Origin: Candidatus Saccharibacteria bacterium oral taxon 488
GTDB taxonomy: Bacteria > Patescibacteriota > Saccharimonadia > Saccharimonadales > Saccharimonadaceae
Reading direction: 5' to 3'
Assembly: GCA_010202845.1 (NCBI GenBank)
Contig: CP047921.1
Location: 480,001-512,000, forward strand
DNA: 32,000 nt
Positions 6,635 through 32,000 of this stretch are shown here, in pieces (positions within the stretch are counted from its first letter, which is position 1; every line of letters starts with the position of its first letter). The position numbers and the translations under genes are program-made. The notes under the pieces are model-generated. The model did no database searches and was not told the DNA's origin. It saw only the letters and a list, made by a program, of their open reading frames with translations.

Positions 6635-7608
6635 TGGACCGCCTTTTGACTGTCGAGGCTCTGATTGAGCTGGTCAATCTTGCGCCCCAATGCGTTCAAT
6701 TTCTCGACATCAGTGTTGTAAGCATCGACCTTACCCTCGATAGTCTGTCGCTCACGACGAAGCGCCAGGCCGCGCTGGCTCAGCCGTGCTCGCTCAGCCT
6801 GAAACTCAGCTTGCGTCTGAAAACCACCGGTCGCCGCCCGTTGATTAAACGCCGCGACATCTTGGTTATAAGCGCTCATACGCGCACTATATGACGCCAC
6901 CAGTTGCTCAATGTCGTGCTTTCGCTTGGCGAGACTAGCCGTCAATGCGTCAGCCTCGGCCTCGGCATTAGTGAACTTTTCATTATATTGAGCATGCAAC
7001 TTCACCAGCGCCGCTCGATCGCTGAAATACTCAGCATAATGCGCTTCCAGCTCCGCCCCAAGATCAGTAAATTCCGTGCCCAAAATGGAATGTAGCTCAT
7101 TGGCACGTGTACCCGGCTGTGCCCGTTCATAATACGCCATCCGCTCCTCCAGCTTTTTAGTCTTGACCTTGGTATAAGCCGCCTCCAGCAGCTCGCCCAG
7201 CCGCCGACGCTGCTCCGCCGAATAGCGCGACCAGGCTACGTGCAGCATTTCGTGAGCCGCCGTCACCTCTTTGATACCGTCTAGCTCCGTGTTCTGCACG
7301 TTATAAATGTGAATGGTCTCTTTGGCGTGGGCGTAACAGCCGACGATCGGGCTGGCCTGTTCGACACGACGGCAATCCTGATTAAATTGCGTAGCGTTTT
7401 CCAGCCGCGGCTGCGCTAGATAAAAGCTAAATTTGGCCTTATCAGTCATCGTTGCCCGCCGTGCCAATGTTGCTATGTCCTGACTCGGTTGATACTGCCA
7501 GACCCTGATATGATCCAGCACTAGCTGGCGATTGAGCACTAGCCAGCTACCACCGGCCACCAACCCCACAAACACCACGACACCGAGGAAATTACGCAGC
7601 CTGAACAT
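6631..7608 (-). CDS. membrane-anchored hypothetical protein with an HExxH motif and a long coiled-coil C-terminus
   Basis: 325 aa. N-terminal TM (FLGVVVFVGLVAGGSWLVL), AAHEMLHVAW (HExxH), and a heptad-like A/E/Q/R-rich C-terminal ~130 aa. It overlaps the clpC stop by 17 nt and the radA start by 1-4 nt. Confidence 0.75.
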   Translation of the reverse strand: MFRLRNFLGVVVFVGLVAGGSWLVLNRQLVLDHIRVWQYQPSQDIATLARRATMTDKAKFSFYLAQPRLENATQFNQDCRRVEQASPIVGCYAHAKETIHIYNVQNTELDGIKEVTAAHEMLHVAWSRYSAEQRRRLGELLEAAYTKVKTKKLEERMAYYERAQPGTRANELHSILGTEFTDLGAELEAHYAEYFSDRAALVKLHAQYNEKFTNAEAEADALTASLAKRKHDIEQLVASYSARMSAYNQDVAAFNQRAATGGFQTQAEFQAERARLSQRGLALRRERQTIEGKVDAYNTDVEKLNALGRKIDQLNQSLDSQKAVQ

Positions 7609-10060
7609 TGATCACTACCTCACGATTTTTTGCAGTCGCTGTCAAGACCGCACCGGGACGGGCCTGACGAGACAATAAGACGTCACTGAGCGGGTCGGCC
7701 AACATTGTCTGAATCGTTTGTCTGAGCACCCGCGCACCACGCTGCTCATCGAAACCGTTATCTATGATACAACGCTTAGCGCTTGGCGTAATCACCAGCG
7801 TCATCTGCTGCGCCTGCACTGCTTCTTTAAGCTCACTCACGAAATTATCGAAAATCTTGCCCACCACCGGCCGAGTCAAGCTCTTGAAATTCACCACCGC
7901 ATCAAATCGCCCGATTAGCTCCGGCCGCAGTAACTCCTCCAGCTCGCGTCGCGCCGCCCGAGCGTTGCGCTCATTCACATCGTCCGCCCGTGAGGTACCG
8001 TCACTGTGCGAGCCAAAGCCCAGCTCACCGTCGCGCACCATCGCCTCGGCGCCAACATTGCTGGTCAAGATCACGATCGTCTGCTGGAAGCTCACCGACC
8101 GACCGCGCGAATCGCTCAGCTTGCCGTCTTCTAAAATCTGCAGTAGCAAGTTCAGTACATCCGGATGCGCCTTTTCAATCTCATCAAACAGCACCACGCT
8201 GTACGGCTGCCGGCGAACCTTATCAGTCAATTTACCGCCCTCATCATAGCCGACATAGCCAGCCGGCGCGCCAATCAACTGACTGGCTGTATGCCGCTCT
8301 GAAAACTCGCTCATGTCGATCTTGATCAAACTATTGTCACCGCCAAACACTTCCCGTGCCAACACGCGAGCTAACTCCGTCTTGCCCACACCAGTCGGCC
8401 CGAGAAAAATGAACGACCCAAGCGGCCCTGACCGCCGACTCAGCCCGGCCCGCGCCCGGCGAATGGTTCGCGCCAATGTCGCCACGGCCTCGTCCTGACC
8501 GAGCACCGACCGGCCTAGCCGCTGCTCCAGTGCCGCCAGATCTTTGCGCTCATTCACTGTCACTTTTTCCGCCGGCACACCAGCCATCGCCGCGACCGCT
8601 CGCCGTACATCATCCTCGGTTAATTCCGGCAATGCTGGATCGTCAGCCGGTAGCTGCTTAGCCTGCTGCTCCAGCTGCTTGATGCGCACCTTGAGTTCAG
8701 CCGCGCGTTGATATTGCTCAGCCTCGACCGCCGCATCGAGCTTGCCCGCTAGTTGTTTAATCCGCCGTGCTAGCTGCTGCTGCTTGGTTGGCTTGGCTGG
8801 CCGTTGCGTATTAACCAGTGCCGCTGCCTCATCGAGTACGTCAATCGCTTTGTCCGGTAAATGACGCTCCGTCACGTAGCGCTGACTGAGGGCTACGCTC
8901 AGCTTGATCATCTCATCAGAAATCCGCAGTCGATGGTGTGTCGCCAGCCGGCCTGCTAGCGCCCGCACCATGGCCACCGCCGCCTGCTCATCCGGCTCCG
9001 CCACCGTCACCGCCTGAAACCGCCGACTGAGGGCCGCGTCTTTTTCGATGTGCTTGCGGTATTCATCAAATGTCGTTGCGCCGATCACCCGTACCTCACC
9101 ACGCGCCAATGCTGGCTTTAGGACATTCGCCGCATCCATCGACCCCTCGGCCGAGCCAGCCCCGACCAATAAATGCAGCTCATCAATAAACAATATAATC
9201 TCCTGATGATTACGCGCTGCCGCCACCACTTTTTGTAAGCGCTCCTCAAACTGACCGCGAAACTTTGTACCAGCGACCATAGCTGTCAGGTCAAGCTGAA
9301 TCAGCCGCTTACCGACCAAAAACTCCGGCACCGTCCCGGCCGCAATACGCTGCGCCAGTCCTTCGACCACTGCGGTTTTACCGACACCCGGCTCGCCGAT
9401 CAGCGCTGGATTATTTTTGCCACGCCGCCCGAGTACCGTGATCAGCCGCTCTGTCTCAGCTTCCCGACCGACCACTGGATCGAGCAGTCCGCTCCGCGCT
9501 CGCTCGGTCATATCAACTCCGTACTGATCAAGGATCTTGAGATCAGCCGACCGACGAGTATGCGGTGCTACAGCTTCCTTCGACTCATCTTGCATGGCTT
9601 CCATCTGCTGCCGATCAAATACGTCCTCCAATGTACCGCGTAGCTCCTCCAGATCCACATTCATATCACTGAGCAACTTCGTCGCCCGAGCCTTGTGCTG
9701 CAGCAGCATGCTATAGACGATATGCTCAGTACCGATGCGCTCCTGTCCAAACTCCGTCGCTAGCTGCCAAGCCGTCCGTATCGTTTCCAGCACCTCGGCG
9801 TTCATGCCTTTGTGAACAACCACCACCACGAACGACTGCGCGGTTAAGCCTAGCGCCAACTCCGCCCGATCCAACGTCACGCCATTCTCCGCCAAAATCT
9901 TCGCACCCAGCGACGAATTTTGCGCCAGCACGCCGAGCAATACATGCTCGGTGCCGACATACGGACTACCACTATTATGCGCCAGCAGCCCGGCACGCTC
10001 TAAGCTGGCCTTGGCGGTATCAGTCAGCCGAGATTCTAACTCAGAAAAATCTTCCGGCAT
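7592..10060 (-). CDS. clpC: ClpC-type AAA+ ATPase (ATP-dependent Clp protease ATP-binding subunit)
   Basis: Two Clp_N repeats, Walker A motifs GEPGVGKT and GPTGVGKT, and a UVR-like coiled segment. I place the start at ATG 10060 (MPEDFSELE...) because AGGAGG lies 5-6 nt upstream. The track start at 10120 would overlap nusA. Confidence 0.9.
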
Positions 10061-10100
10061 ATCGCCCTCCTTTCGTTTTTGGCGATTGTCAGAAAGCAGC

Positions 10101-11222
10101 CTATTCCGCCACCTCCTCAACCACGCTCATCAAGCTGTCCTCAATATTTTTACGAGGTTTTGCTTCAGGCTTGACAGCCGCCTTTGCCTCAATATCCAGT
10201 TCATAGCCAGTCAACCGGCTTGCCAAGCGAACATTCTGTCCAGCCCGACCGATGGCCACTGACTGCTGATCCTCGCTAACATAGACCGTTGCTCGCTTTT
10301 CATCTTCATTGACCGTCACACTCAGCACTTCTGCTGGACTCATAGCATTAGCGATGAAACCAGCCGCATCTTCCTCAAACGGAATGATGTCAATTTTTTC
10401 CTGCTCGCCAATTTCGTTCATCACTGCCTGAACACGCGTACCGTGACCGCCGACAAACGTACCGACTGGGTCAACACCTGGCAGTGCCGATGCTACCGCC
10501 AATTTAGTGCGGCGACCAGCCTCGCGGGCAATGGCTTTGATCTCCACGGCGCCTGTTTCCATCTCTGGCACTTCCTGGCTGAACAAGAACCGCACAAATT
10601 CTTCATTGCCGCGGCTCAAAATCAACTGCGGACCGCGACCTTCGCGCTCGATGTCCTTGATATAGACCTTGACGCGGCGGCCAACGCCGTAGTACTCGCC
10701 AGGAATTTGCTCGGATTGCGGCATGATGCCAACGGCCTTGCCCAGCTCAATTCGCACCACGCGCGGCTCAACCCGCTGAATCGTACCAGTCACCACTGTA
10801 CCAATTTTATCTTCAAATTCTGCCAGCACCACCTCGCGCTCTGCTTCGCGCAGCCGCTGCAAAATCACTTGCTTGGCAGTCTGGGCTGCCACCCGGCCAA
10901 ACGTCGTCACGTTGTGGGTCTCGACCGTCACTTCGCTGCCTAGCTCAGCCGCCGGATCAACGGTTTTGGCCTCGTCCAGGCTCATTTGATTGACGTCATT
11001 TTCAACCTCTTCAACCACCGTTTTAACAACTGACACCACAGCCGTGCCGCTGTTGATATTCAAGCTGGCACGCACCAATTGCTCGCGCGTGCCGTTATCA
11101 CGCCGCCACGCTGCCGCGATAGCCTGCTCGATCACCTCCAAAACCGTTTCTTCTGGCAGGTTCTTTTCCTCAGCAATCGTCCGCACCGCCAACGTCAATT
11201 GCTTAATATTCAAATCTTCCAT
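10101..11222 (-). CDS. nusA: transcription termination/antitermination factor NusA
   Basis: 373 aa with an N-terminal domain, an S1 domain and two KH domains (GRAGQNVRLASRLTG). AAGGAG SD upstream. Confidence 0.95.
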   Translation of the reverse strand: MEDLNIKQLTLAVRTIAEEKNLPEETVLEVIEQAIAAAWRRDNGTREQLVRASLNINSGTAVVSVVKTVVEEVENDVNQMSLDEAKTVDPAAELGSEVTVETHNVTTFGRVAAQTAKQVILQRLREAEREVVLAEFEDKIGTVVTGTIQRVEPRVVRIELGKAVGIMPQSEQIPGEYYGVGRRVKVYIKDIEREGRGPQLILSRGNEEFVRFLFSQEVPEMETGAVEIKAIAREAGRRTKLAVASALPGVDPVGTFVGGHGTRVQAVMNEIGEQEKIDIIPFEEDAAGFIANAMSPAEVLSVTVNEDEKRATVYVSEDQQSVAIGRAGQNVRLASRLTGYELDIEAKAAVKPEAKPRKNIEDSLMSVVEEVAE

Positions 11223-18912: not shown

Positions 18913-21410
18913 CAGACTATTTCAGCGCCCCACTTGTCTTTGGCCGCCCGTTCAATCTGCTGCATTACCGGCGCGATGTCCTTGTCCGCTAACGTCCGCT
19001 CATGCGAGGTAAACGTCAGCCGCCATGTCATCGTCTTCTGCTCCGCATCATCCTCAGGCTGATAAATAGTGAGTAGCTCAAGTCGCACCTCCATAGCAAC
19101 GTCCCGTACAACCTCGTCCAGCGTCTGTAGTAGCTGCTGATACTTGACAGCGGATGGTACTTTGAGCGAGATATCGCGCGTCGTTGATGGATAGCGGCTG
19201 AGTGGCTGATAATGACTGTCACGCTTGGCGTAGACAGCCTCTAGGCCAGCTGTGTCCAAGCTCGCCGCTGCCACATACACCGGTAATTTGAAGTTCTTGA
19301 TGACTGATTGTTTCAATTCACCGACTAGACCGATGAACGTTCCGTCGGTTGTCTCGACCAACGCACTACGCGACTGGTCAAACGGTGCCGTAACTGGGTA
19401 GTTGAGCTCCTCTTCAATTGGCTTGAATACCAGCTCAGCACCAAGCTCACGCGCTAATTGCTCAACCAAGCGACGAATCACATAAAATGGTGCGCCCGCC
19501 CCTGGCTTTTTGGCGGCGTAGACGATGTCTGTAAACTGACTGGCTACTGGCAAGTTATCTTCGCCTAGGCCATGCATTTTGCTGTGGCCCTTGCCCATCT
19601 CAAACAAGGCAAATTCATCATGCCCGGCCTTGATGTTGGCGTGAACCTTGTCGAGTAGACTTGGCAGCACCGCCAAGCGGTAATATTGCAAATCAGGACT
19701 GAGGGCGTTTGATAATTTGTATGCCTGAGCAACGTCTTGCTCGGCGTTTTTCAGGATACGTTCATGAACGAAACTGTAGGTCAAGACTTCGTTGGCGCCA
19801 GCGCGCGATAGACTTTGGCGAACGGCGTTTTTCAACTCACGACGCAGGTTTTTCGGTGCGGGTTTAATACTACGACGAGGCAGTTGACGCGGTAACTTAT
19901 CAAAGCCATACAGCCGCCCAACCTCCTCGACGATGTCCTCGGGTAGCTCAATATCGGTGCGCCAAAACGGGCTGTAGACCTCACAACCATGTTCATCAAC
20001 TTCAACCATAAATTCAGTACGGCGCAAAATATCGGCAATTTCATCGTTAGAAAAATCAGTACCCAGTCGTTCGTTAACAAACTCATTCGAAACACCTTGC
20101 GAGTCAACACGGTGAATAGCATCCGGCATAATACATTCATTAGATGAGCTAGCGTCAAACACTTCACTCGCCTGCGCTCCACCCACCATGCTCATCAGCT
20201 GTTTCAGCACGGCGGCATTTTGGAGCGGCGATTGACCCTTGTTAAACCGCGTGAGTGCATCGGTAAAAATACCGTGTCGCATGGCCGTACGGCGCAACGC
20301 GTACATGTCAAAATTAGCACATTCGAGGATGATGTTTTTCGTGCCATTTGAGACTTCAGTGTCGGCACCGCCCATAATTCCCGCCAGACCAATCACTCCC
20401 TCGCCATCAGCGATGACGATGTCATCATTCGTCAACTTATACTCTTTGCCATTAAGCAGGCTGACTTTCTCGCCATCACGAGCCATTCGTGCCTCAAGTT
20501 TGTGCCCACGCAATTTGTCATAATCATAGGCGTGCGTTGGCTGCGCCGTCATGAACATCATATAATTCGTGGCATCGACAACGTTATTAATCGGCTTGCC
20601 GCCCATCGCCACCAACTGACATTGTAGCCACAATGGGCTTGGCTGCACGGTAACATCGCGAAACGCTACCGCCATGAACCGCGGCACTAATTCTGGCGCA
20701 TCATTCGCCACGGTGAGCTCCAACCCCTCGCCCGCCGCAAATTGCTGATCTGATTTATACCACTCAGGGCTCGTGAATTGCTGATGAAAAATCCCGGCAA
20801 TCTCGCGCGCCACGCCGAGCTGCCCGAAACAATCCGGCCGGTGCGTAAACATCTTATTTTCAATGTCCAATACGTAATCATCCAGACCAAACGTTTCCGC
20901 GAAATTCGCACCTGCCGTAAGTTCAACGCCCACCGGCACGTCGTGTTCATAAATCTCAACAATTCCCTCGTGATCCGTACCAATCGCCAGCTCGTCCGCC
21001 GCCGCCAACATACCTTGGCTAAGCACTCCACGCAGCGGTCGCGCGTCCAGCACGAACGGCTCGTCGTCATTAAAACTCGCCGGCACCGTACTTTTTGGCG
21101 GCAACCAAATCGCCCACATGTCGGCGTGAACATTCGGCGCACCGCAGACCACTTGTACCAGACCGTCCTCATCGCGCGGCACATCCGCGACCGCGCCGCC
21201 ATCATCGATCTTGGTCACGCTCAGCCGATCGGCGTCAGGATGCTTGGCGCATTCAACCACCCGAACGATCCGCGCGCCACCATATTTAGCGCTGAGGTCG
21301 ATCACTTCTTCGACACCACCAAGTTGCTGATTGACCCGCGCCACCAACTCATCCACCGGCGGTAATTCAAAATTAATCAATTGTTTGATAAGATTTAGGC
21401 TGACTTTCAT
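18912..21410 (-). CDS. pheT: phenylalanine--tRNA ligase beta subunit
   Basis: 832 aa. N-terminal tRNA-binding domain (KHPDADRLSVTKID), B3/4 and B5 regions, and a C-terminal anticodon-binding-like domain. Confidence 0.93.
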   Translation of the reverse strand: MKVSLNLIKQLINFELPPVDELVARVNQQLGGVEEVIDLSAKYGGARIVRVVECAKHPDADRLSVTKIDDGGAVADVPRDEDGLVQVVCGAPNVHADMWAIWLPPKSTVPASFNDDEPFVLDARPLRGVLSQGMLAAADELAIGTDHEGIVEIYEHDVPVGVELTAGANFAETFGLDDYVLDIENKMFTHRPDCFGQLGVAREIAGIFHQQFTSPEWYKSDQQFAAGEGLELTVANDAPELVPRFMAVAFRDVTVQPSPLWLQCQLVAMGGKPINNVVDATNYMMFMTAQPTHAYDYDKLRGHKLEARMARDGEKVSLLNGKEYKLTNDDIVIADGEGVIGLAGIMGGADTEVSNGTKNIILECANFDMYALRRTAMRHGIFTDALTRFNKGQSPLQNAAVLKQLMSMVGGAQASEVFDASSSNECIMPDAIHRVDSQGVSNEFVNERLGTDFSNDEIADILRRTEFMVEVDEHGCEVYSPFWRTDIELPEDIVEEVGRLYGFDKLPRQLPRRSIKPAPKNLRRELKNAVRQSLSRAGANEVLTYSFVHERILKNAEQDVAQAYKLSNALSPDLQYYRLAVLPSLLDKVHANIKAGHDEFALFEMGKGHSKMHGLGEDNLPVASQFTDIVYAAKKPGAGAPFYVIRRLVEQLARELGAELVFKPIEEELNYPVTAPFDQSRSALVETTDGTFIGLVGELKQSVIKNFKLPVYVAAASLDTAGLEAVYAKRDSHYQPLSRYPSTTRDISLKVPSAVKYQQLLQTLDEVVRDVAMEVRLELLTIYQPEDDAEQKTMTWRLTFTSHERTLADKDIAPVMQQIERAAKDKWGAEIV

Positions 21411-21428
21411 ATATATCAGTATAACATT

Positions 21429-21935
21429 CTAATCAACTGTGTAGTCAAACACCTTGACGGGAATACCTTTTTCCCTGGCTTGATCAATCGTAAACGTCGT
21501 GCCAGGACTATCGTTGACCCGAAATGCCACCAGTTCGTCCGCCAGAGCGACAATTTGGCAATTACGCGCATGAAATGAATCAGCGTTAACTTCATTAAAA
21601 TCAGTAGCATCGCACAGCACTCCAAGTCGATATTTGGCGATGTCTCGCAGAAGATCGACCGTCGCGACCGCATCATCCTGGCGACATTTGCCGCCAGCCG
21701 CTCGGCTATACAATGCTTGGCAATATAGCTCCAGATCCACTGGCAAAAATATCTGAAACCGTGCCGCTTCCAAACCACATTCATACGCCAGCCGCGCCGC
21801 TTCGTGATCAGCACCAGTAGCGCCACCCGACACAATTCCATTACCATCGGCAATCTTTTGACCAACAAAATGCTCAATGTCACGGCGAATTGTGTCATTT
21901 ACTTCACGCGTACCGACAACTCCGAGCCACTTCAT
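21429..21935 (-). CDS. SLOG/DprA-like Rossmann-fold protein (DUF2493-like)
   Basis: 168 aa. The SGGATGADHEAARLAYECG motif resembles the GGAxGAD signature of the SLOG/DUF2493/DprA-type fold. Assignment is by motif recognition only. Confidence 0.5.
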   Translation of the reverse strand: MKWLGVVGTREVNDTIRRDIEHFVGQKIADGNGIVSGGATGADHEAARLAYECGLEAARFQIFLPVDLELYCQALYSRAAGGKCRQDDAVATVDLLRDIAKYRLGVLCDATDFNEVNADSFHARNCQIVALADELVAFRVNDSPGTTFTIDQAREKGIPVKVFDYTVD

Positions 21936-21964
21936 AGTTCGCCCCGTTGGTTAAAGTTAAAATA

Positions 21965-22420
21965 TTACCCTTGAGCAGCAATGATCTGCGCCTGAATCCG
22001 GTTTAGTTCGGCCTCATCCATCTTTGGCCCCTCGGTCGTCGTCAGCCAACCACGATAGCTCTCGTGAAACTCTGCGTTCTCTGCCCAGACATCAGTCCGC
22101 CCTGCCAAGTCACCGTGCAGCGGATACAGCTTAGCATGCACATGCGCCACGCCCGTCCCCTCGAATACCAGCGCTACCCGCGGTGTATCAAACGCGCGCT
22201 CCAGCAGCCGCGCCACCTGGCGCACTGCTCGCATAAACTCGAGGTACAGCGTCTCGTCAATCGCAAAAATATAATCACCCGGATTATGCTTTGGAATGAC
22301 CACTGTCACCCCCGGGGTATTTGGAAACGGCGTGAGAAACGCCAGAAATTGCTCGTCCTCCCAAACCTTCCATGATTTTACGGTGCCTGATACAATGTCG
22401 TCGAAAATTGTATGGTTCAT
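21965..22420 (-). CDS. HIT (histidine triad) family protein
   Basis: 151 aa with histidine triad GVAHVHAKLYP. AAGGAG SD upstream. Confidence 0.85.
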   Translation of the reverse strand: MNHTIFDDIVSGTVKSWKVWEDEQFLAFLTPFPNTPGVTVVIPKHNPGDYIFAIDETLYLEFMRAVRQVARLLERAFDTPRVALVFEGTGVAHVHAKLYPLHGDLAGRTDVWAENAEFHESYRGWLTTTEGPKMDEAELNRIQAQIIAAQG

Positions 22421-22646
22421 AGTTACTCCTTTTAAGATAATTATAGCAAATAATTTTAAGCTAAAGCAAAATTACTTAACACTGCGCAAGCACTAATAGT
22501 TGTATTATCTCCTAAAACTACTAGCATGCCGCGATCTTCCCCTGAAAGCGCTACAGAACTTTTGGTTCATGGAGCTAATTACGATCACGTCATTTTAATT
22601 TTACATATACGGCGCCATGATTTTACTGGAATTTTTGTAAAATCAC

Positions 22647-22675
22647 TTGACTTAGCAATCTGGTATTGATATATA
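22647..22675 (+). promoter_or_regulatory. strong sigma70-like promoter: TTGACT-17 nt-TATATA with TGn extension
   Basis: -35 at 22647-22652 and TGATATATA at 22667-22675. The 11-mer TGATATATATC is identical to the promoter at 11461-11471. Confidence 0.6.
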
Positions 22676-22730
22676 TCAGCTTTTTACGTAATTCCGCGTA
22701 TCAAGCAAGTGCTAGTAGAAAGGGGTAGTC

Positions 22731-22946
22731 ATGGGTGGCTACCAGGACGGTGATCGTTGGGTTGACCCGGATGGAACTTCTCACACGGTCAATTCGACCA
22801 ACGATCCCAATGTTCCGGGTGGATACTACTACAACCAGCACGGCCCTGACGGCCACGCAACGGCCGTCTACAACTCTGACGGAACGTTCGCCAATGTGGC
22901 GGCGAATCGCGACTGGGTCGAAGTGCCGCGCCAAGACCAGGACTAG
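22731..22946 (+). CDS. small hydrophilic G/D/N/Y-rich protein, unknown function
   Basis: 71 aa with an AAAGGGG SD 5 nt upstream. YD-like repeats (GGYYYNQHGPDGH, AVYNSDGTF). No signal peptide or TM. It is a GC-rich patch in which three other frames are also open, so the frame choice rests on the SD. Confidence 0.5.
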   Translation: MGGYQDGDRWVDPDGTSHTVNSTNDPNVPGGYYYNQHGPDGHATAVYNSDGTFANVAANRDWVEVPRQDQD

Positions 22947-23029
22947 TCTGAGCTAGTTGGTCCCTCGCAGACCTCAGCATGTCTGCGTGTGCCCTTGGCA
23001 CAAAACAAAAACTGCTCTATTCTTGTATT

Positions 23030-23464
23030 ATGAGACCTACTGATGAAATCGCCACTGCCATTCGCGCCAATGACCTGCCAACCTATCAGCGCGAACGCTA
23101 CCCCGCTATCCAGGAAGGCGAGTTTGTTCGTTTTGTAGATGAGGATTTTTCTGGCGTTGATTTTGGCCAGTTTGTCATGGGATTTTTCATGTTTGAGAAT
23201 TGCAACCTGGATTACGCAAAGCATATTTACGGGCAACCAATTTGTTTTAAGAATTCATCAGTTCAGAGCGTAGATTTTCGCGGCGTCAAAGCTATTATTG
23301 AGACAGGGGGCTGTGACTTTCGCGGCATGAAATATGATAAGGAAACACAATTTGTTTATGGCAGTGGCAAGTTGGCAGCGCGATCACGTTTCGTGAACTG
23401 CCAGTTGGATGATGAGGCACGTGAGTTTTTGGCAAAACAAGGCGTGGAGATCGCAGATAAATAA
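23030..23464 (+). CDS. pentapeptide-repeat-like protein
   Basis: Five-residue periodicity EDFSG/VDFGQ/FVMGF/FMFEN/CNLDY..., with further DFRG repeats. The start is uncertain: ATG 23030 (MRPTDEI...) or ATG 22979. Neither has a clear SD. Confidence 0.55.
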   Translation: MRPTDEIATAIRANDLPTYQRERYPAIQEGEFVRFVDEDFSGVDFGQFVMGFFMFENCNLDYAKHIYGQPICFKNSSVQSVDFRGVKAIIETGGCDFRGMKYDKETQFVYGSGKLAARSRFVNCQLDDEAREFLAKQGVEIADK

Positions 23465-23509
23465 ACCTCTGAACAAACACGATACTGGATGAGAATGAAA
23501 GGCCACCAA

Positions 23510-24073
23510 ATGACCAAAAAGCTACTAGAAATCGAACGCAAACGCCAATTAACCGGCGACGCAAAAGAATTAATCAAGCGATTGCAAGGCCTCGGTTTTG
23601 AGTTAGAGAGCAGCCGCCACGAAATCGATACGTACTATTCTCGCCCCGATGTCAATTTCATGCAGACGGTCGAATGTTTGCGGATTCGCCAGCGCGATGG
23701 TTTTGCTGAGGTGACATATAAGCCTGCGACGACGATTGCGACACATACGAAAAACGATGTGATCATTAAGCCCGAGACAAACCTACCGATTCAGCCCGGG
23801 AACGCGGCAATCGCCAAGCAGCTACTGGCAAATCTCGGTATGGTGCAGCTCGTTGAAGTTAATAAATACCGGCGATCATTCCAATCCCCAGACTTTCCGC
23901 AGGCAACGGTGGCTATAGACGAAATCAAAGACGCTGGGACGTTTGTAGAAGTTGAAGTTTTGTCAGATGATGAGACTAGTGCGCTGGCGATGATCAGCGA
24001 GATTGAGGTCAAACTCGGCCTTGACTCGGCAGAAGTTGTCACGCGGCCTTATCGGGATATTTGTATGGGATAA
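23510..24073 (+). CDS. CYTH-domain protein (class IV adenylate cyclase / triphosphate tunnel metalloenzyme family)
   Basis: N-terminal EIERK (ExExK) signature and C-terminal GTFVEVEV strand. Size of 187-194 aa is typical of CyaB-like proteins. ATG 23510 is preceded by GAAAGG; the track start is 23489. Confidence 0.8.
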   Translation: MTKKLLEIERKRQLTGDAKELIKRLQGLGFELESSRHEIDTYYSRPDVNFMQTVECLRIRQRDGFAEVTYKPATTIATHTKNDVIIKPETNLPIQPGNAAIAKQLLANLGMVQLVEVNKYRRSFQSPDFPQATVAIDEIKDAGTFVEVEVLSDDETSALAMISEIEVKLGLDSAEVVTRPYRDICMG

Positions 24074-24544
24074 TTAAGCTACGTTTTTATCAAATCCACG
24101 CCTGGCCCTACTATCCAACCGCAGCACCACACTATACAAAAATATGCTAACCCCCCAAAAAATAACGCTCAGATAATTACCCCAATTAAAATCATTCCAA
24201 GGATTGCGGGTCGGGCTGTCTGTTGGGTCGTACGCCACAAATCCCACTACGGACATCACGATAATAATCAGAAGTCCGGAGATAATGATTTCACGCACAT
24301 AGCTGGAGCGCTGAAATAGTGATAGCCTCAGGTTATATCGAGACCCCGACGGCAACAACACCAATAACACAATAACGATATACGATGGGATGGTTATTAT
24401 GCCCTCAAATACATCCCACGGGTTAACCTTCATGATATCAGGTTTCACTACCTTCACGATCTCTTGCATACCCAGCGACACCCCAAAGAACAGCAGCAGG
24501 ATGATCAGCACCAGCCCAACAGAACTCCATCGCCTAGTCCACAT
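24074..24544 (-). CDS. four-TM small membrane protein, unknown family
   Basis: 156 aa with four hydrophobic helices (about residues 8-25, 48-64, 85-104, 124-141). AGGAG SD 6 nt upstream, lying inside the end of the preceding gene. 11-nt overlap with that gene. Confidence 0.75.
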   Translation of the reverse strand: MWTRRWSSVGLVLIILLLFFGVSLGMQEIVKVVKPDIMKVNPWDVFEGIITIPSYIVIVLLVLLPSGSRYNLRLSLFQRSSYVREIIISGLLIIIVMSVVGFVAYDPTDSPTRNPWNDFNWGNYLSVIFWGVSIFLYSVVLRLDSRARRGFDKNVA

Positions 24545-25460
24545 TCTTCGCTCCTGCTATGACGCTTGTCGCTACTTTGTAGACTTCATGTATTTTACCA
24601 AACACCTGCTTGTCATATTCTTCTCGGTCTTCGATGCTGCTGTCTGGTAATTCGATAGTATTCTTGAACTGCGGCTGCATGATATTAACCGATGTTACCT
24701 CCATACCTTCTTCAATTTCAACGTCGTAGACCTGCTTTTCGACGCCCGGAAATTCCTTCACATAGTGATCAATGTACGCGCCAGGAGACAGGAACTTACC
24801 CCTACTCGGCCGAAAATCAATGACGATAGTACCAAGTGTATCAGTACGATTATCGATCGAGGGTGCAGAGAATAAACTTTTCGCTAGTTGGCTAATTTTA
24901 TTATTGTGCTCTATGGCTTCACGAGGAACAAATATTTTCGCGGATTTTATACGATGAGCCTGCCTGATTAACTCGATAGCATCTGGATGACAGACCACCG
25001 TCCCGATAAATGCTAGCTTTTCAGAAAGCGAGAGCTTTGTTGCGCAATTGTTTATATACGCTAGGATCTTTACGTTTGTGGCGACGTTTCGGTTGTATTC
25101 TAACGCCATAATTCCCTTGTCAGCATAGTAGAGGAAATGCACTACCTGCACCGGCAGCTGCCCATCGGGCAGCGGATAACGCCTGATGAGATCGTCATCG
25201 TCCCTACCTATGGTAATCACGTTTGATCCGTACACGGCGATGATACCCGCGTAACATTTGGATGATTCACTAGTTTTATGTAGCTTGTCAAACTGCAAGA
25301 GCCGCATAAACGACTCATCATCATTTGGATTGTACTGCCAATTCCTATCGTCCTCTTCAAGCTTCATCAGATCACGGAGAACATCCTCAAACGGATAGCT
25401 GCCGTATCCCTCATCGTCACGGTTGGTGATGTTGTAGAGAAAGACGTTGCGCTTGATCAT
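24534..25460 (-). CDS. soluble protein of unknown family, acidic N-terminal region
   Basis: 308 aa from ATG 25460, with GGAGAG SD 5 nt upstream (the track start is GTG at 25463). No motif I can assign. It starts 30 nt after the pheS stop on the same strand. Confidence 0.75.
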   Translation of the reverse strand: MIKRNVFLYNITNRDDEGYGSYPFEDVLRDLMKLEEDDRNWQYNPNDDESFMRLLQFDKLHKTSESSKCYAGIIAVYGSNVITIGRDDDDLIRRYPLPDGQLPVQVVHFLYYADKGIMALEYNRNVATNVKILAYINNCATKLSLSEKLAFIGTVVCHPDAIELIRQAHRIKSAKIFVPREAIEHNNKISQLAKSLFSAPSIDNRTDTLGTIVIDFRPSRGKFLSPGAYIDHYVKEFPGVEKQVYDVEIEEGMEVTSVNIMQPQFKNTIELPDSSIEDREEYDKQVFGKIHEVYKVATSVIAGAKNVD

Positions 25461-25490
25461 CACAGCTCTCCGGTGAACCTAACGGTTGAA

Positions 25491-26534
25491 TTAAAACTGC
25501 TCCAAAAAGTCCAACTTACCGCTTTCAAAATGCCGCACGTCTTCAATGCCGTATTTCATCATTACCAGCCGGTCGATGCCGCAGCCAAAGGCAAAGCCAG
25601 TGTACTTATTCGGGTCGATATCGGCAGCCTTCAGCACATTCGGATGAATCATGCCGCAGCCCAATAGTTCGATCCAGCCCTCGCCCGAACAAACTTTACA
25701 GCCTGCATCCTCATCCTCACAGAATGGGCAGCTCAGTGCAAATTCAAAGCTCGGTTCGGTGAATGGGAAATAAAATGGATTGACGCGCACGTCAAGTTGC
25801 TTGCCGTAATATTCTTGCAAAAACTCCTGCAAGGTAGCGATCAGATTGCCGACGTTAACCCCCTTGGCGACATACACGCCCTCAACTTGATAGAATGTGT
25901 GCTCGTGCCGCGCGTCCAGGTCTTCGTTACGAAACACCCGGTCGGGCACGATGGCGGCGATCGCCTCGCCGCTCGCCAAATTACCGCGATATTTCTTCAG
26001 TACGCGGTTCTGCATGGTCGAGGTGTGCGCCGGTGCAATCAAGCGGTCGCCATTAGCGTCAGTCTCCTCAGTCATGAACGTGTCATAATCATCGCGCGCT
26101 GGGTGACCTTTCGGGAAATTCAGGCTCTCAAACATATGAAATTGGTCATCAATCTCACGCGACTCTTCCGTCACGAAACCCATTCGATTGAAAATGTCAG
26201 AAATGCGGTCAATTTCTCGCATCAATGGATGAATCGTGCCGTGCTCACTCGGTAGCAAACTAGGCCGTGGGGCATTGACGTCCATCGGCGCTGTCACGTC
26301 AATTGGCGGCAAATCAACTTTCGATAGCTCATCTTCGCGAGCCGTAACTGCCCGCTCCAATTCCTGCTTCAATTCATTAACCTTTTTACCAAATACCCCG
26401 CGCTCTTCGCTTGGCAACGTCGCGATAACGCCATATAGTTCCCGCAGCTCTGCGCTCCGCAACACGCTACGCGGTTCAGCTGCCTCGGCTACGCGCGATA
26501 ATAATAGTGATCGAACTTCCTCTAACGTTTCCAC
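25491..26534 (-). CDS. pheS: phenylalanine--tRNA ligase alpha subunit
   Basis: 347 aa. Class II motif 2 (FRNEDLDARHEHTFYQVEG) and motif 3 (GFAFGCGIDRLVMM). GTG start 1 nt after the stop of the upstream small ORF. Confidence 0.93.
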   Translation of the reverse strand: METLEEVRSLLLSRVAEAAEPRSVLRSAELRELYGVIATLPSEERGVFGKKVNELKQELERAVTAREDELSKVDLPPIDVTAPMDVNAPRPSLLPSEHGTIHPLMREIDRISDIFNRMGFVTEESREIDDQFHMFESLNFPKGHPARDDYDTFMTEETDANGDRLIAPAHTSTMQNRVLKKYRGNLASGEAIAAIVPDRVFRNEDLDARHEHTFYQVEGVYVAKGVNVGNLIATLQEFLQEYYGKQLDVRVNPFYFPFTEPSFEFALSCPFCEDEDAGCKVCSGEGWIELLGCGMIHPNVLKAADIDPNKYTGFAFGCGIDRLVMMKYGIEDVRHFESGKLDFLEQF

Positions 26535-26828: not shown

Positions 26829-27824
26829 ATGGCCACGAAGAAGACTACTAAAAAGGCCGCGACTGCAAAATCCAGTTCAAAGAAAACGACTGCTGCAGCT
26901 GCTACATCGAAAACAACCGTAACGCGTGTCACCAGCAAGGCTGAGACGAAAAAACCAGAGGTCAAATCAACTGCTGCTAAACCCGTCAGAACTAGCTCAC
27001 CACGCAAAAAATTAGATACCAAGCTACCGCGCAACCTCGTCAACATCGTACTCGCCGAAGTTGCTGGTACGTTCATCTTGACGCTAGTCGCCTTGTTCTC
27101 GGCATATATGATGACACCGTTTTACATTGGTCTAGCACTGGTAGTATTAGTGCTCGGTATTGGTGCAATCTCCGGCGCGCACATTAACCCAGCCGTGACG
27201 TTCGGTCTCTGGACGATGCGTAAGCTTCGGGCTATACTCGTGCCGTTCTACTGGGCAGCACAATTCCTTGGCGCAATGGCTGCCGTTGTCTTGATGGGAG
27301 CAATTTCATCAGGCAGCTTCGTCATTAACTTTGACCAATTTACCACTTTCTCGTGGGCGATCTTTGCCGTCGAGCTCGTCGGTATGGCGGTCTTTATGTT
27401 CGGGGTGAGTGCTGCTCTGTCACGCACTGATCTCAAGAATACCAGTAGAGCCGTAGTCATCGGTATGTCATTGACACTTGGCCTCGTCGTTAGCGGTGCA
27501 TTGCTACCACTCGCCCAAAATGCTGCTGTCCAAAAGTACCAACAGGAGCAAGCAAATGCGACTCGGCAAACTCAGCAGCTAAAGGATCAGCGTACTTACC
27601 CGCGTGAGGTATATATCAGCGGTGCAACCCTGAACCCAGCAGTTGCCTTAGCCGTGACTGAAAAGACTAACTCACAGCTACAAAATGCCTCAGCACCAGC
27701 ACAAAAAACAGAGAAAATGTATACCCGCCTCAGCCTCGAGGTTATTGCCGCAACCCTCGTTGGCGCAGCGCTCGGCGGTAACTTGTTCCTACTAATCGGC
27801 TATCGCAACAAGGTTGAAGAATAA
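26829..27824 (+). CDS. MIP/aquaporin-family channel with a long basic N-terminal extension
   Basis: 331 aa with two NPA boxes (HINPAVTF, TLNPAVAL) and six TM segments. The first ~75 aa are K/T/A/S-rich low complexity. Confidence 0.88.
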   Translation: MATKKTTKKAATAKSSSKKTTAAAATSKTTVTRVTSKAETKKPEVKSTAAKPVRTSSPRKKLDTKLPRNLVNIVLAEVAGTFILTLVALFSAYMMTPFYIGLALVVLVLGIGAISGAHINPAVTFGLWTMRKLRAILVPFYWAAQFLGAMAAVVLMGAISSGSFVINFDQFTTFSWAIFAVELVGMAVFMFGVSAALSRTDLKNTSRAVVIGMSLTLGLVVSGALLPLAQNAAVQKYQQEQANATRQTQQLKDQRTYPREVYISGATLNPAVALAVTEKTNSQLQNASAPAQKTEKMYTRLSLEVIAATLVGAALGGNLFLLIGYRNKVEE

Positions 27825-30087: not shown

Positions 30088-30162
30088 TGGGGATTCGCCA
30101 AGTGGTAAGGCACCGGGTTCTGGTCCCGGCATTCGGGGGTTCGAATCCCTCATCCCCAGCCA
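30088..30162 (+). tRNA. tRNA-Gln (anticodon CUG), CCA encoded
   Basis: Manual cloverleaf. Acceptor UGGGGAU/AUCCCCA. Anticodon stem CCGGG/CCCGG with loop UUCUGGU. T arm GGGGG-UUCGAAU-CCCUC. Discriminator G followed by CCA. Confidence 0.9.
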
Positions 30163-30197: not shown

Positions 30198-30687
30198 TGC
30201 GCTTTGGTTTGGTATGAACCTGATGGTCAGTTGATGTTTCTTGAGATTTTACCGTGGTTGTCGCGCCACCCTGGCCGAAACCGCTTGCCCATATCGCCAA
30301 AATCCACACGCCGGCCAGGAACAGGAGCGACCAGCTACCGCCCGGTAGGTCAAACGTCGCCCCAAATATCATTGATACTCCGTGACAGAATGCCATGCTT
30401 TCTAGCAGCGTCAACAGCAGTAGCGCCACGATGCCCATCATAGCACTTACCTTTCTCAGCCTAGCCGATATATCCATGGCCAGCAGGAACGGCAACGCCC
30501 CAATCTCTGCGACAACGAGAACGATGGCGCACACTGCCGCCATCACGCTCGGCAATCCAGCGAGCATTGCTGGAAACTTATCAAACGAAAATAGCTGGCT
30601 CAAGACGATGACGAGAATATATCCGGCAACGATTAACCGTACAATGTGTACGACTGATATTGGTCGTTGGGTTGATGTTTTCTTCAT
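30184..30687 (-). CDS. four-TM membrane protein (possibly DoxX/MauE-like) with a basic C-terminal tail
   Basis: 167 aa with four hydrophobic helices and a C-terminal KPKRKKKD. The family call is weak. Confidence 0.6.
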   Translation of the reverse strand: MKKTSTQRPISVVHIVRLIVAGYILVIVLSQLFSFDKFPAMLAGLPSVMAAVCAIVLVVAEIGALPFLLAMDISARLRKVSAMMGIVALLLLTLLESMAFCHGVSMIFGATFDLPGGSWSLLFLAGVWILAIWASGFGQGGATTTVKSQETSTDHQVHTKPKRKKKD

Positions 30688-30934
30688 AGATACAGTATAC
30701 CGACCCGCCTTAAAAAGCTCAAGCTTGTTGTATTATTTACCAAAGCGCTTGCTTTTTTTATTAAAAACACGTACAGTAACAACAAGCGAACGATACAAAA
30801 ACAAACACTACTGACGTTTCTTTCGCTCTACGATATCCACCACAACAAAATACCGTTACGAGTATGTAGCGGTATTTTCCGTTGTTGGATAAATCACAAC
30901 GCTATATATAGCGTATACGTGCTATAGTAACAAT

Positions 30935-32000
30935 ATGAAAGAATATTGTGAGTCGAGAGGGTTTGTTGAGTTTGGTCCAAAAAATACCGCACCTGTACCA
31001 TTACTTGCCATTAACGAAATTGAGCAGATTCGTAAAACATATGATCCAGGGGCAATCACTGAACTAGCGACTTCAATCGTTCACGAGGAGGACGGTAATA
31101 CTTGGTTCGATATGTACAATCCTCTCCTAGCCGCCTGCCTCACACCAGAGGAGGCGGAGCAATACCTCAAGGAACACGCTGCGTTTCATAAAGGATCTCA
31201 ATCAATTGATAGTCTTACGCCAGACCATGACGGTAACTACGTCATCCTGATCTCTGGGCATCGTCGTAAACGCGCTATCGAACAGCTAATCAGCCAACAT
31301 GGCATTACGCCGGAATGCGTTCGCGTGAATGTCAATCTTCGCCGTGGCATTACCTTTGAGGAAGCACTCGTTGCCCAAGTGCGCGAGAATACACACGAGA
31401 AAGTGTCGCCTACTGAAACCGCCAAATATATCGAGCAACTACACGCCTATCTCGAGAATAAAGAAGGGGCACAGCCGACCTACAGGCGACTGTCTATGAT
31501 GACCGGGATTAGTGAAGGCATTATTAGTACTGCGCTACGATTTCAGCGCCTACCGGAAAGCATCCGACTACTTGCCACCACTCATGGCGATATCCTCCCC
31601 TACTCAACCCTTGTAAGACTCGAGCCACTAATGCGCAAACGAGGCGAGCTGTATAAGAAGTTACTCTCGCTCGGGCAAACCATGAACGGGGAAGACTGTG
31701 AGACCTATGTCGAGAATCACCTTCATATCGTGGCGAATACCATTGTTGAAGGCCTCCTTGGCGCCAAGAAGCGCAATCACTATATTCGGCAGCAGATTAG
31801 CGACCTAGAACTACGAATTATCAATGCCCAGCCCAGCTTTGACCTTATAGCAGAAACCAGCTCTGGAGCTCAGCGAAAGGCATCAGAGACCCGCCTCGGT
31901 AAGACAGCCGTATCGGCCATGCGGCATGCCTGTCGAGACGATCCAAGAAATATGCCACCCGAACAGCTAGCTGACCTCGAGGAGTTCGTCGCAAAAGCCA
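30935..32000 (+). CDS. ParB/sulfiredoxin-domain protein, partial; continues past the window end
   Basis: Own translation gives MKEYCESRGFVEFGPKNTAPVPLLAINEIEQIRKTYDPGAITELATSIVHE...ILISGHRRKRAIEQL...VRENTHEKVSPTETAKYI. It has a ParB N-terminal box with the GxRRxxA motif and is open for 355 codons to position 32000. It is not in the ORF track because there is no stop in the window. Confidence 0.75.
   Translation, partial: MKEYCESRGFVEFGPKNTAPVPLLAINEIEQIRKTYDPGAITELATSIVHEEDGNTWFDMYNPLLAACLTPEEAEQYLKEHAAFHKGSQSIDSLTPDHDGNYVILISGHRRKRAIEQLISQHGITPECVRVNVNLRRGITFEEALVAQVRENTHEKVSPTETAKYIEQLHAYLENKEGAQPTYRRLSMMTGISEGIISTALRFQRLPESIRLLATTHGDILPYSTLVRLEPLMRKRGELYKKLLSLGQTMNGEDCETYVENHLHIVANTIVEGLLGAKKRNHYIRQQISDLELRIINAQPSFDLIAETSSGAQRKASETRLGKTAVSAMRHACRDDPRNMPPEQLADLEEFVAKA

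Follow-up and report, generated by a model that had tools for sequence, protein, structure and literature searches.

A coupled gene pair downstream of pheS

We analysed a window of 32,000 nucleotides (nt) from Candidatus Saccharibacteria bacterium oral taxon 488 (contig CP047921.1, positions 480,001 to 512,000 of the forward strand; all coordinates below count from the first letter of this window, unless a locus is named). The subject of the analysis is a pair of minus-strand genes, here called A and B, that lies directly downstream of pheS and encodes a soluble protein and a small membrane protein. An exact-sequence look-up traced the two products to the 853-kb chromosome of this organism, where both are annotated as "hypothetical protein". 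The pair, its translation signals and the two genes that frame its surroundings are as follows.

24537-25460, minus strand: gene A, 308 amino acids (aa), QHU93913.1; open reading frame (ORF) 24534-25463
24077-24544, minus strand: gene B, 156 aa with four transmembrane (TM) segments, QHU93912.1; ORF 24074-24544
25471-25466, minus strand: Shine-Dalgarno sequence of A, GGAGAG, 5 nt ahead of the ATG in the 30-nt spacer between pheS and A, read from the sequence
24555-24551, minus strand: Shine-Dalgarno sequence of B, AGGAG, 6 nt ahead of the ATG of B and within the coding sequence of A, read from the sequence
25494-26534, minus strand: pheS, the 5' neighbour of A (Pfam tRNA-synt_2d, E 3e-79)
18915-21410, minus strand: pheT, the far edge of the pheS-pheT gap, 2.7 kb beyond A-B (Pfam B3_4, B5, tRNA_synthFbeta and FDX-ACB)

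Gene A starts with the ATG at 25460-25458, with a GTG one codon 5' of it as an alternative, and its reading frame ends with the TAG at 24536-24534. The ATG of B is located at 24544-24542, and the two genes overlap by 11 nt (24534-24544). A first-pass annotation of the window had described exactly this arrangement, with a Shine-Dalgarno sequence for each gene and that of B inside A, and its coordinates were confirmed. Its description of the products was accurate as well. The first 60 residues of A contain 14 D/E and 8 K/R residues, making the N-terminus acidic (the isoelectric point of the whole protein is 5.3), and the four hydrophobic segments of B are found at residues 8-26, 45-63, 86-104 and 125-143. 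The pair is genuine: two translationally coupled genes for a soluble and a four-TM protein. The stop codon of pheS (25493-25491) is separated from A by 30 nt. In a scan for promoters and terminators, counts did not exceed those of shuffled sequence and no site was located between pheS, A and B; pheS is probably co-transcribed with the pair.

With a GC content of 0.452 (A) and 0.461 (B), the pair lies 6-7 GC points below the window mean of 0.520, while pheS and pheT are at 0.519 and 0.526; GC at third codon positions is only slightly below that of the neighbours. The first-pass annotation had called the pair AT-richer than the flanking pheS and clpC-type genes. This is correct for pheS, but the ClpC-type gene lies 14 kb away and is no flank, the downstream neighbour being a CYTH gene. 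Similarly, the pair had been placed exactly where pheT is expected. It does begin 30 nt after pheS, but pheT itself is present 2.7 kb further on, and a replacement of pheT by A-B was rejected.

Family, predicted fold and distribution of A and B

Neither of the two window proteins gave a match in Pfam, NCBIfam or PADLOC, and the only signal was a weak colinear match to phrog_10865 (E 0.003). An exhaustive hidden Markov model search of 1.84 billion representatives returned 20 matches, among them full-length, colinear proteins of ~300 aa. The A1 profile reached P0021 (E 1e-40), P0022 (1e-36) and P0038 (6e-4), in each case colinearly and over the full length, and these proteins match DUF6731 (PF20505) with 34, 36 and 54 bits, respectively, at a gathering score of 27. 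DUF6731 was matched by 10 of the 19 family members, PADLOC model PDC-M67A by 12 (best E 4e-9, for P0021, which also matches DUF4747) and phrog_10865 by 13. Weak PDC-M67A matches were also obtained for the Saccharibacterial orthologues P0009, P0010, P0013, P0015 and P0017 (E 3e-6 to 0.05, residues ~105-195). By this transitive comparison of sequences, A appears to be a divergent relative of DUF6731/PDC-M67A. The earlier suggestion that the pair may have no described family was therefore not borne out, since the A family links to DUF6731, DUF4747 and PDC-M67A and, by fold, to RexA and RdgC (see below). The PDC entries, or "phage defence candidates", comprise 145 predicted systems discovered within BREX, DISARM and type I restriction-modification (R-M) systems (bioRxiv 10.1101/2024.01.29.577857). 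We found no mention of DUF6731 or PDC-M67 in the literature, and none of ten B-type proteins matched PDC-M67 (PADLOC, E up to 5).

Two AlphaFold2 models of A were built, one from an alignment of 18 sequences (mean predicted local distance difference test score, pLDDT, 74.7; predicted template modelling score 0.74) and one from a more diverse alignment of 19 sequences (pLDDT 75.7). When model 1 was compared with the PDB by Foldseek, lambda RexA (8twq) came first (E 1.3e-7, probability 1.0, 318 columns), followed by Escherichia coli RdgC (2owl; E 3.5e-5) and then CENP-N/Chl4. Model 2 gave the same ranking, with RexA at E 1.6e-6 (probability 1.0), RdgC at 2e-5, and CENP-N and CENP-L. A similar set of proteins was listed by Adams et al. 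2024 (PMC11077077), whose structural neighbours of RexA include RdgC and IML3/CHL4, the yeast counterparts of CENP-L/CENP-N. Against BFVD, the top matches were uncharacterised siphovirus proteins of ~300 aa (E 1e-13 to 2e-7), and then phage RdgC. Judging from these models, a two-domain RexA/RdgC-type fold is the most likely one for A. Across the broad A family only G72, F109, Y135, N259 and Y294 are invariant. As this alignment holds no invariant polar catalytic set, a binding protein fits better than an enzyme, and an enzymatic role of A was disfavoured.

The hydrophobic segments of B occupy nearly the same positions as the TM segments of lambda RexB (8-26, 48-66, 84-102 and 116-134). The positive-inside rule predicts a cytoplasmic location for both termini of B and for its basic TM2-TM3 loop, which carries 4 K/R. 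A four-TM partner was found beside the A-type gene at loci L005, L006, L008, L009, L023/L024, L026, L028 and L029, and at L031 its start is present before the contig ends. Five distant relatives keep such an adjacent partner, of 133-166 aa (partial in L031), and at a further locus it may be split:

L023/L024: 133 aa, 20-nt overlap with the A-type gene
L029: 147 aa, 14-nt overlap
L028: 141 aa, 4-nt gap
L031: partial at the contig end, 17-nt overlap
L026: 166 aa, convergent
L025: perhaps a split partner, seen as two short TM ORFs

In the four co-oriented distant pairs the starts overlap or abut, and both the partner and the overlapping junction persist down to 18-26% identity in A.

Close homologues of A fell into 19 clusters only (52-95% identity), and a second, word-indexed profile search for A gave no further homologues. 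We recovered 21 loci, all from oral Saccharibacteria and including Nanosynbacter metagenome-assembled genomes (MAGs) and a complete HMT-488 genome. A and B occur together with pheS upstream in 21/21 of these loci, wherever the contig extends that far, and A follows pheS directly in all of them except L009/L010 and L015. At L015 (MAG contig UNSQ01000009.1), an insertion of ~2.4 kb separates pheS from A (7549-10001 of that locus), including a HIT-like fragment at 9736-9909, which indicates that the pheS-A junction is not inviolable.

The distance from B to pheT ranges from 0 to ~8 kb. L006 is the most compact case: 1 nt separates pheS from A, the A/B overlap measures 4 nt, and B runs up to or into the start of pheT, leaving no room for other content. 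Elsewhere, the interval carries a hydrolase, a two-component system, GrpB, DUF5674 and a PLD-family gene (L001-L004; L001 also has GTP cyclohydrolase II and a CYTH gene), type I HsdM and HsdS, a KAP NTPase and a reverse transcriptase directly after B (L005), an EcoRI-type methylase and GmrSD directly after B (L008), or a flavodoxin, an M48 peptidase, a kinase-like gene and Ham1 (L009). Because this cargo differs between loci while A-B stays, the pheS-pheT gap can be described as a variable hotspot of which A-B is the constant element.

Both ORFs are intact in the 11 related loci that we compared (10 GTDB genomes and L001), and the median ratio of nonsynonymous to synonymous divergence (dN/dS) was 0.057 for A and 0.138 for B. 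Both genes are under strong purifying selection. In deep comparisons, A diverges faster (dN 0.35-0.42) than pheS (0.13-0.20) and pheT (0.22-0.32). The divergence of B is far greater than that of A, its identity falling to 20-28% where pheS keeps 76-82%. Among close genomes, the dS values form a mosaic. In L019 and L020, A stood at 1.18 and B and the flanks at 0.26-0.78; in L018, dS was 0.47 for B, 1.2-1.3 for A and pheT, and saturated for RmuC; and in L015 an A that is 95% identical accompanies a pheS of 82% identity with saturated dS. This pattern suggests that Nanosynbacter species exchange alleles of the two genes by recombination, with breakpoints even between A and B.

The contexts of the distant relatives point to defence or to prophages. 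In L023 and L029 the gene order is SNF2 helicase, A, B, type III Mod and Res, with an additional NYN gene in L029; this helicase/R-M embedding is the type of context from which the PDC candidates were derived. L026 is a prophage, in which the pair sits between a helix-turn-helix/ImmA repressor module and a serine integrase; on the other side of the switch lie Gam and Rad52. A separate case is L028, from an environmental Candidatus Saccharimonadales MAG (GCA_035457345.1, P0030), where a 23%-identical A-type gene and its partner lie at 2163-3495 of the locus. This is an unrelated site that adjoins DUF2130 and an amidophosphoribosyltransferase-like gene, which implies that the module entered Saccharimonadales more than once, or moved.

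Candidate functions of the pair

Our preferred reading, which we hold with moderate confidence, is that A-B is a divergent Rex-type two-gene phage-exclusion module. A would be the cytosolic partner and would probably act as a dimer, with DNA or a trigger made by the phage (a nucleoprotein or a protein) as its ligand. B would be a RexB-like, four-helix inner-membrane partner with its N-terminus, C-terminus and basic central loop facing the cytoplasm. By analogy with RexA/RexB, with the mycobacteriophage pair gp30/31 of Sbash and with the Gordonia phage pair gp44/43 of CarolAnn, A would be activated by infection and would in turn switch B to a state that collapses the membrane potential and ATP, resulting in abortive infection. 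Interaction of A with B, binding of DNA or another trigger, membrane depolarisation and anti-phage activity are what we infer from this analogy.

A defence role, as proposed in the first-pass annotation, is the best-supported reading of A-B, because distant homologues with a four-TM partner occupy helicase/R-M and prophage sites and because relatives of A match PDC-M67A. That annotation had also named an observation that would speak against defence, namely conserved core genes beside pheS with no defence association. The pair is indeed conserved beside pheS, but the association is there, since the variable region behind A-B holds defence genes in two lineages (L005 and L008). In oral Saccharibacteria (Nanosynbacter, the HMT-488 group), the proposed module lies outside any prophage, fixed behind pheS, and heads a variable region that is closed by pheT.

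The resemblance to lambda RexAB extends over several features. The gene order is soluble then membrane in both systems, the sizes are comparable (279 aa for RexA and 144 aa for RexB; 308 aa for A and 156 aa for B), RexB has four TM segments and a basic TM2-TM3 loop as does B, and RexA is the best structural match for both predicted models of A. RexA, a dimeric, non-specific DNA binder, interacts with RexB, and the two cause energetic defects (PMC11077077). There are differences too: rexA and rexB lie 15 nt apart whereas A and B overlap by 11 nt, and rexAB sits beside cI in a prophage whereas A-B is chromosomal, behind pheS among housekeeping genes and outside any prophage immunity region. The relative in L026, on the other hand, does occupy a prophage repressor region, like rexAB beside cI. 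The host of A-B, an epibiont of the Candidate Phyla Radiation (CPR), is also unlike that of lambda Rex.

A bridge to other exclusion systems is provided by DUF4747, for which Hatfull's group reported a weak match in lambda RexA, Sbash gp30 and CarolAnn gp44 (PMC6426596, PMC6426606). Sbash gp30/gp31 and CarolAnn gp44/gp43 were shown experimentally to exclude heterotypic phages, and the four-TM partners of these pairs have a central cytoplasmic loop that is essential, as in Sbash gp31 (PMC6426596, PMC6426606). Like A-B, these systems combine a soluble protein with a four-TM partner, and DUF4747 is the family that P0021 of the A family also matches. CarolAnn gp44 and gp43 overlap by 26 nt, much as A and B overlap, and they adjoin the repressor near a serine integrase, while the L026 pair is located beside a serine integrase. 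The soluble proteins of Sbash and CarolAnn are longer, however (370-372 aa), and both pairs are prophage-borne and expressed in lysogeny, whereas A-B is a fixed chromosomal locus.

Several results weigh against a Rex-type module. At the level of sequence, none of the 19 A-family members matched Pfam RexA (PF15969), B-type proteins gave no Pfam RexB match, and an hmmsearch of the A2 profile against PDB sequences returned nothing significant. With hhalign, A2 gave no significant alignment to lambda RexA (probability <=2%), to a 19-sequence RexA alignment (0.3%) or to CarolAnn gp44 (<=2%). The B family (A3) similarly stayed at <=2% with CarolAnn gp43, and its colinear local match to RexB covered the TM2-TM3 loop and TM3 only (E 0.029, probability 1.7%). 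The link to Rex consequently comes from fold, architecture, the DUF4747/DUF6731 bridge and context, and not from direct sequence similarity. At the level of structure, confidence in the A model is moderate (pLDDT ~75), and TM-scores of A to RexA were 0.27-0.36 with a large root-mean-square deviation. RexA undergoes large inter-domain movements (Adams et al. 2024, PMC11077077), and movements of this type could account for the low scores, which are still a caveat. The family assignment is transitive, since relatives of A match DUF6731 and PDC-M67A whereas A of the window has no direct match to DUF6731, PDC-M67A or any other Pfam or PADLOC model, and PDC-M67 is itself only a candidate. Among phages, tblastn of the 50,697 records of a cultured-phage collection and pattern scans of IMG/VR detected no relative; the diverse A2 alignment yielded no search patterns for such scans. 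Finally, the position of A-B is constant across genomes with a pheS only 76% identical, unlike that of typical defence genes, and A-B as sole pheS-pheT content in L006 makes a pattern that would also fit lineage-specific housekeeping.

A more elaborate version of the Rex-type reading is conceivable, though we would regard it as speculative. Here, a Rex-type abortive-infection module would have been domesticated by the ultra-small epibiotic Saccharibacteria and wired into the essential pheS-pheT cluster, so that it is always expressed, hard to lose, and forms the fixed edge of a recombination hotspot with turnover of defence and accessory cargo. In a related form, a membrane-tethered RexA-fold protein would have been re-used for the handling of imported or host-derived DNA.

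Among the rival explanations, the one that fares best, though we consider it rather unlikely, is that A-B works in the manner of Kiwa without being homologous to it. B would then sense phage attachment or DNA entry, and A would be the effector, gripping the entering DNA at the membrane like a ring or clamp so that its replication and late transcription are blocked while the cell survives. The first-pass annotation had noted the likeness, and as far as architecture goes it was right: Kiwa also consists of a four-TM protein and a soluble ~310-aa protein. KwaB (~315 aa) dimerises and has a channel in which DNA is bound non-specifically, and KwaA anchors it at the membrane (bioRxiv 10.1101/2023.02.26.530102), and RdgC and RexA, whose fold A is predicted to share, are dimeric non-specific DNA binders too (PMC11077077). 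Moreover, a non-abortive mechanism would suit a module that is permanently on within an essential operon. However, the Kiwa gene order is the opposite of that of A-B, and KwaB was described as a Rossmann-like N-terminal domain plus DUF4868 (bioRxiv 10.1101/2023.02.26.530102), which differs from the RexA fold. Neither DUF4868 (Pfam, E up to 10) nor KwaB (PADLOC) matched any of 19 A-type proteins, and KwaA matched none of 10 B-type proteins (PADLOC, E up to 5). The top 50 Foldseek PDB matches of both A models contained no Kiwa entry, the presence of one in our PDB copy being unconfirmed. Homology with Kiwa was rejected on the lack of KwaA, KwaB and DUF4868 matches, the opposite gene order and RexA as the structural match.

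Less probable again, in our view, is a lineage-specific housekeeping function, in which A would serve these epibionts as a membrane-tethered, RdgC-like DNA handler, controlling either recombination or how imported DNA is processed. RdgC was the second-best structural match of the A models (E 2e-5 to 2e-4, ~350 columns); it is a non-enzymatic DNA binder of ~300 aa, similar in length to A, and a recombination regulator. A fixed position between pheS and pheT across the 21 Saccharibacterial loci, the tight packing of L006 (a 1-nt gap, a 4-nt overlap and the end of B at the pheT start), strong purifying selection and a very small genome of 853 kb would all be in keeping with such a role. RdgC, however, is a stand-alone gene, typical of Proteobacteria and not known to have a membrane partner, whereas A always has one, and the RdgC Pfam model had no match in the A family. 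Distant relatives with a four-TM partner, embedded in R-M and prophage lysogeny sites, also argue against housekeeping, as do the tiny and patchy family (20 representatives among 1.84 billion proteins), the very fast divergence of B relative to pheS (20-28% and 76-82% identity, respectively), A-allele dS values out of step with the flanks, as expected of exchanged accessory genes, and the AT-richness of A-B compared with its neighbours. That A and B are uncoupled genes, adjacent by history only, in a decaying remnant of an old prophage would agree with their slightly higher AT content and with the prophage setting of L026, but is very improbable given two genes that are intact in 11 related loci, where their dN/dS is far below 1, a junction and partner that persist to 18-26% identity in A, and a window with no other prophage genes, the rest of its genes with family matches being housekeeping.

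Seen as a Rex-type exclusion module, A-B is not categorically new but would be a divergent Rex-like variant in a catalogued, uncharacterised family. Three aspects appear to be new, however: the structural link of DUF6731/PDC-M67A-type proteins to RexA suggested by the models, the constant four-TM partner of these proteins, and the fixation of such a module at the border of a variable hotspot within the pheS-pheT cluster, in an epibiont of the CPR. Among phage-exclusion systems, Rex has been known the longest; its mechanism is unsettled, and its known relatives are few and prophage-borne. The RexA-fold link and the four-TM partner would give the DUF6731/PDC-M67A family a testable mechanism, and the Rex-like class would be widened to chromosomal, R-M-embedded and CPR contexts. 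If the reading is true, DUF6731/PDC-M67 would gain its first structural and mechanistic handle, and the CPR its first Rex-like system. No paradigm is changed by this, and the function is one that we infer. With its place at the head of the variable pheS-pheT region in genomes of ~0.85 Mb, A-B may in addition be a useful marker in studies of genome plasticity and phage defence in these bacteria.

Other genes of the pheS-pheT interval and the window

The pheS-pheT gap of the window contains six genes, namely A, B, a CYTH/CyaB-like gene, a 161-aa gene, a HIT-family gene and a SLOG/DprA-like gene. Together with the ClpC-type gene mentioned above, the features beyond A-B are:

21432-24070, mixed strands: variable cargo between B and pheT, with Pfam, NCBIfam and PADLOC matches; content differs by lineage
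23489-24073 including the stop codon (23489-24070 coding), plus strand: CYTH/CyaB-like gene (class IV adenylate-cyclase-like), TIGR00318, 81 bits at a cut-off of 58
22979-23461, plus strand: 161-aa gene, GC 0.451, without a family
21968-22420, minus strand: HIT-family gene, 151 aa, from the Pfam, NCBIfam and PADLOC scans
21432-21935, minus strand: SLOG/DprA-like gene, 168 aa, Pfam DNA_processg_A 8e-14, PADLOC ShosA 5e-10 and PsyrA 1e-6
7595-10120: ClpC-type gene, 14 kb from A-B

The CYTH gene converges on B, and the stop codons of the two genes abut with 0 nt between them. CYTH genes recur near A-B in diverged lineages, at differing positions and in differing orientations (L009 7395-7997, L001 16792-17364 and L005 448-996). 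In L009, the CYTH gene shares the strand of A and directly precedes it, at a distance of 3 nt. A functional link between CYTH and A-B is possible.

The 161-aa gene had no match in Pfam, NCBIfam, PADLOC or PHROGs. Among close relatives it was found only in L017 and L020, and partially in L016, which makes it the most variable element of the local cargo. The HIT and SLOG/DprA-like genes lie directly upstream of pheT, and both are present in most close relatives, with L012 and L015 (HIT only) and L018 (SLOG-like only) as exceptions. They could form a toxin-antitoxin or defence pair centred on nucleotides, in which ShosT, the usual partner, is absent.

The other genes of the window with family matches are housekeeping genes, and none of the remaining genes is of prophage type. 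They encode tyrosyl-tRNA synthetase, a class A penicillin-binding protein, RadA, ClpC, NusA, glyceraldehyde-3-phosphate dehydrogenase and RelA/SpoT, and further thioredoxin reductase, FKBP, an ABC exporter, the pheT and pheS products, MIP and RmuC. An Rfam scan of the window found a single tRNA-Gln (30088-30162), and the stretch of lowest GC (30501-31000; 0.414 compared with a mean of 0.52) lies just beyond it. Upstream of pheS, the MIP/aquaporin-family gene (26829-27824, plus strand) carries an N-terminal extension of ~70 aa that is rich in Lys, Thr and Ala, and it diverges fast, with 44-62% identity where RmuC keeps 77-97%.

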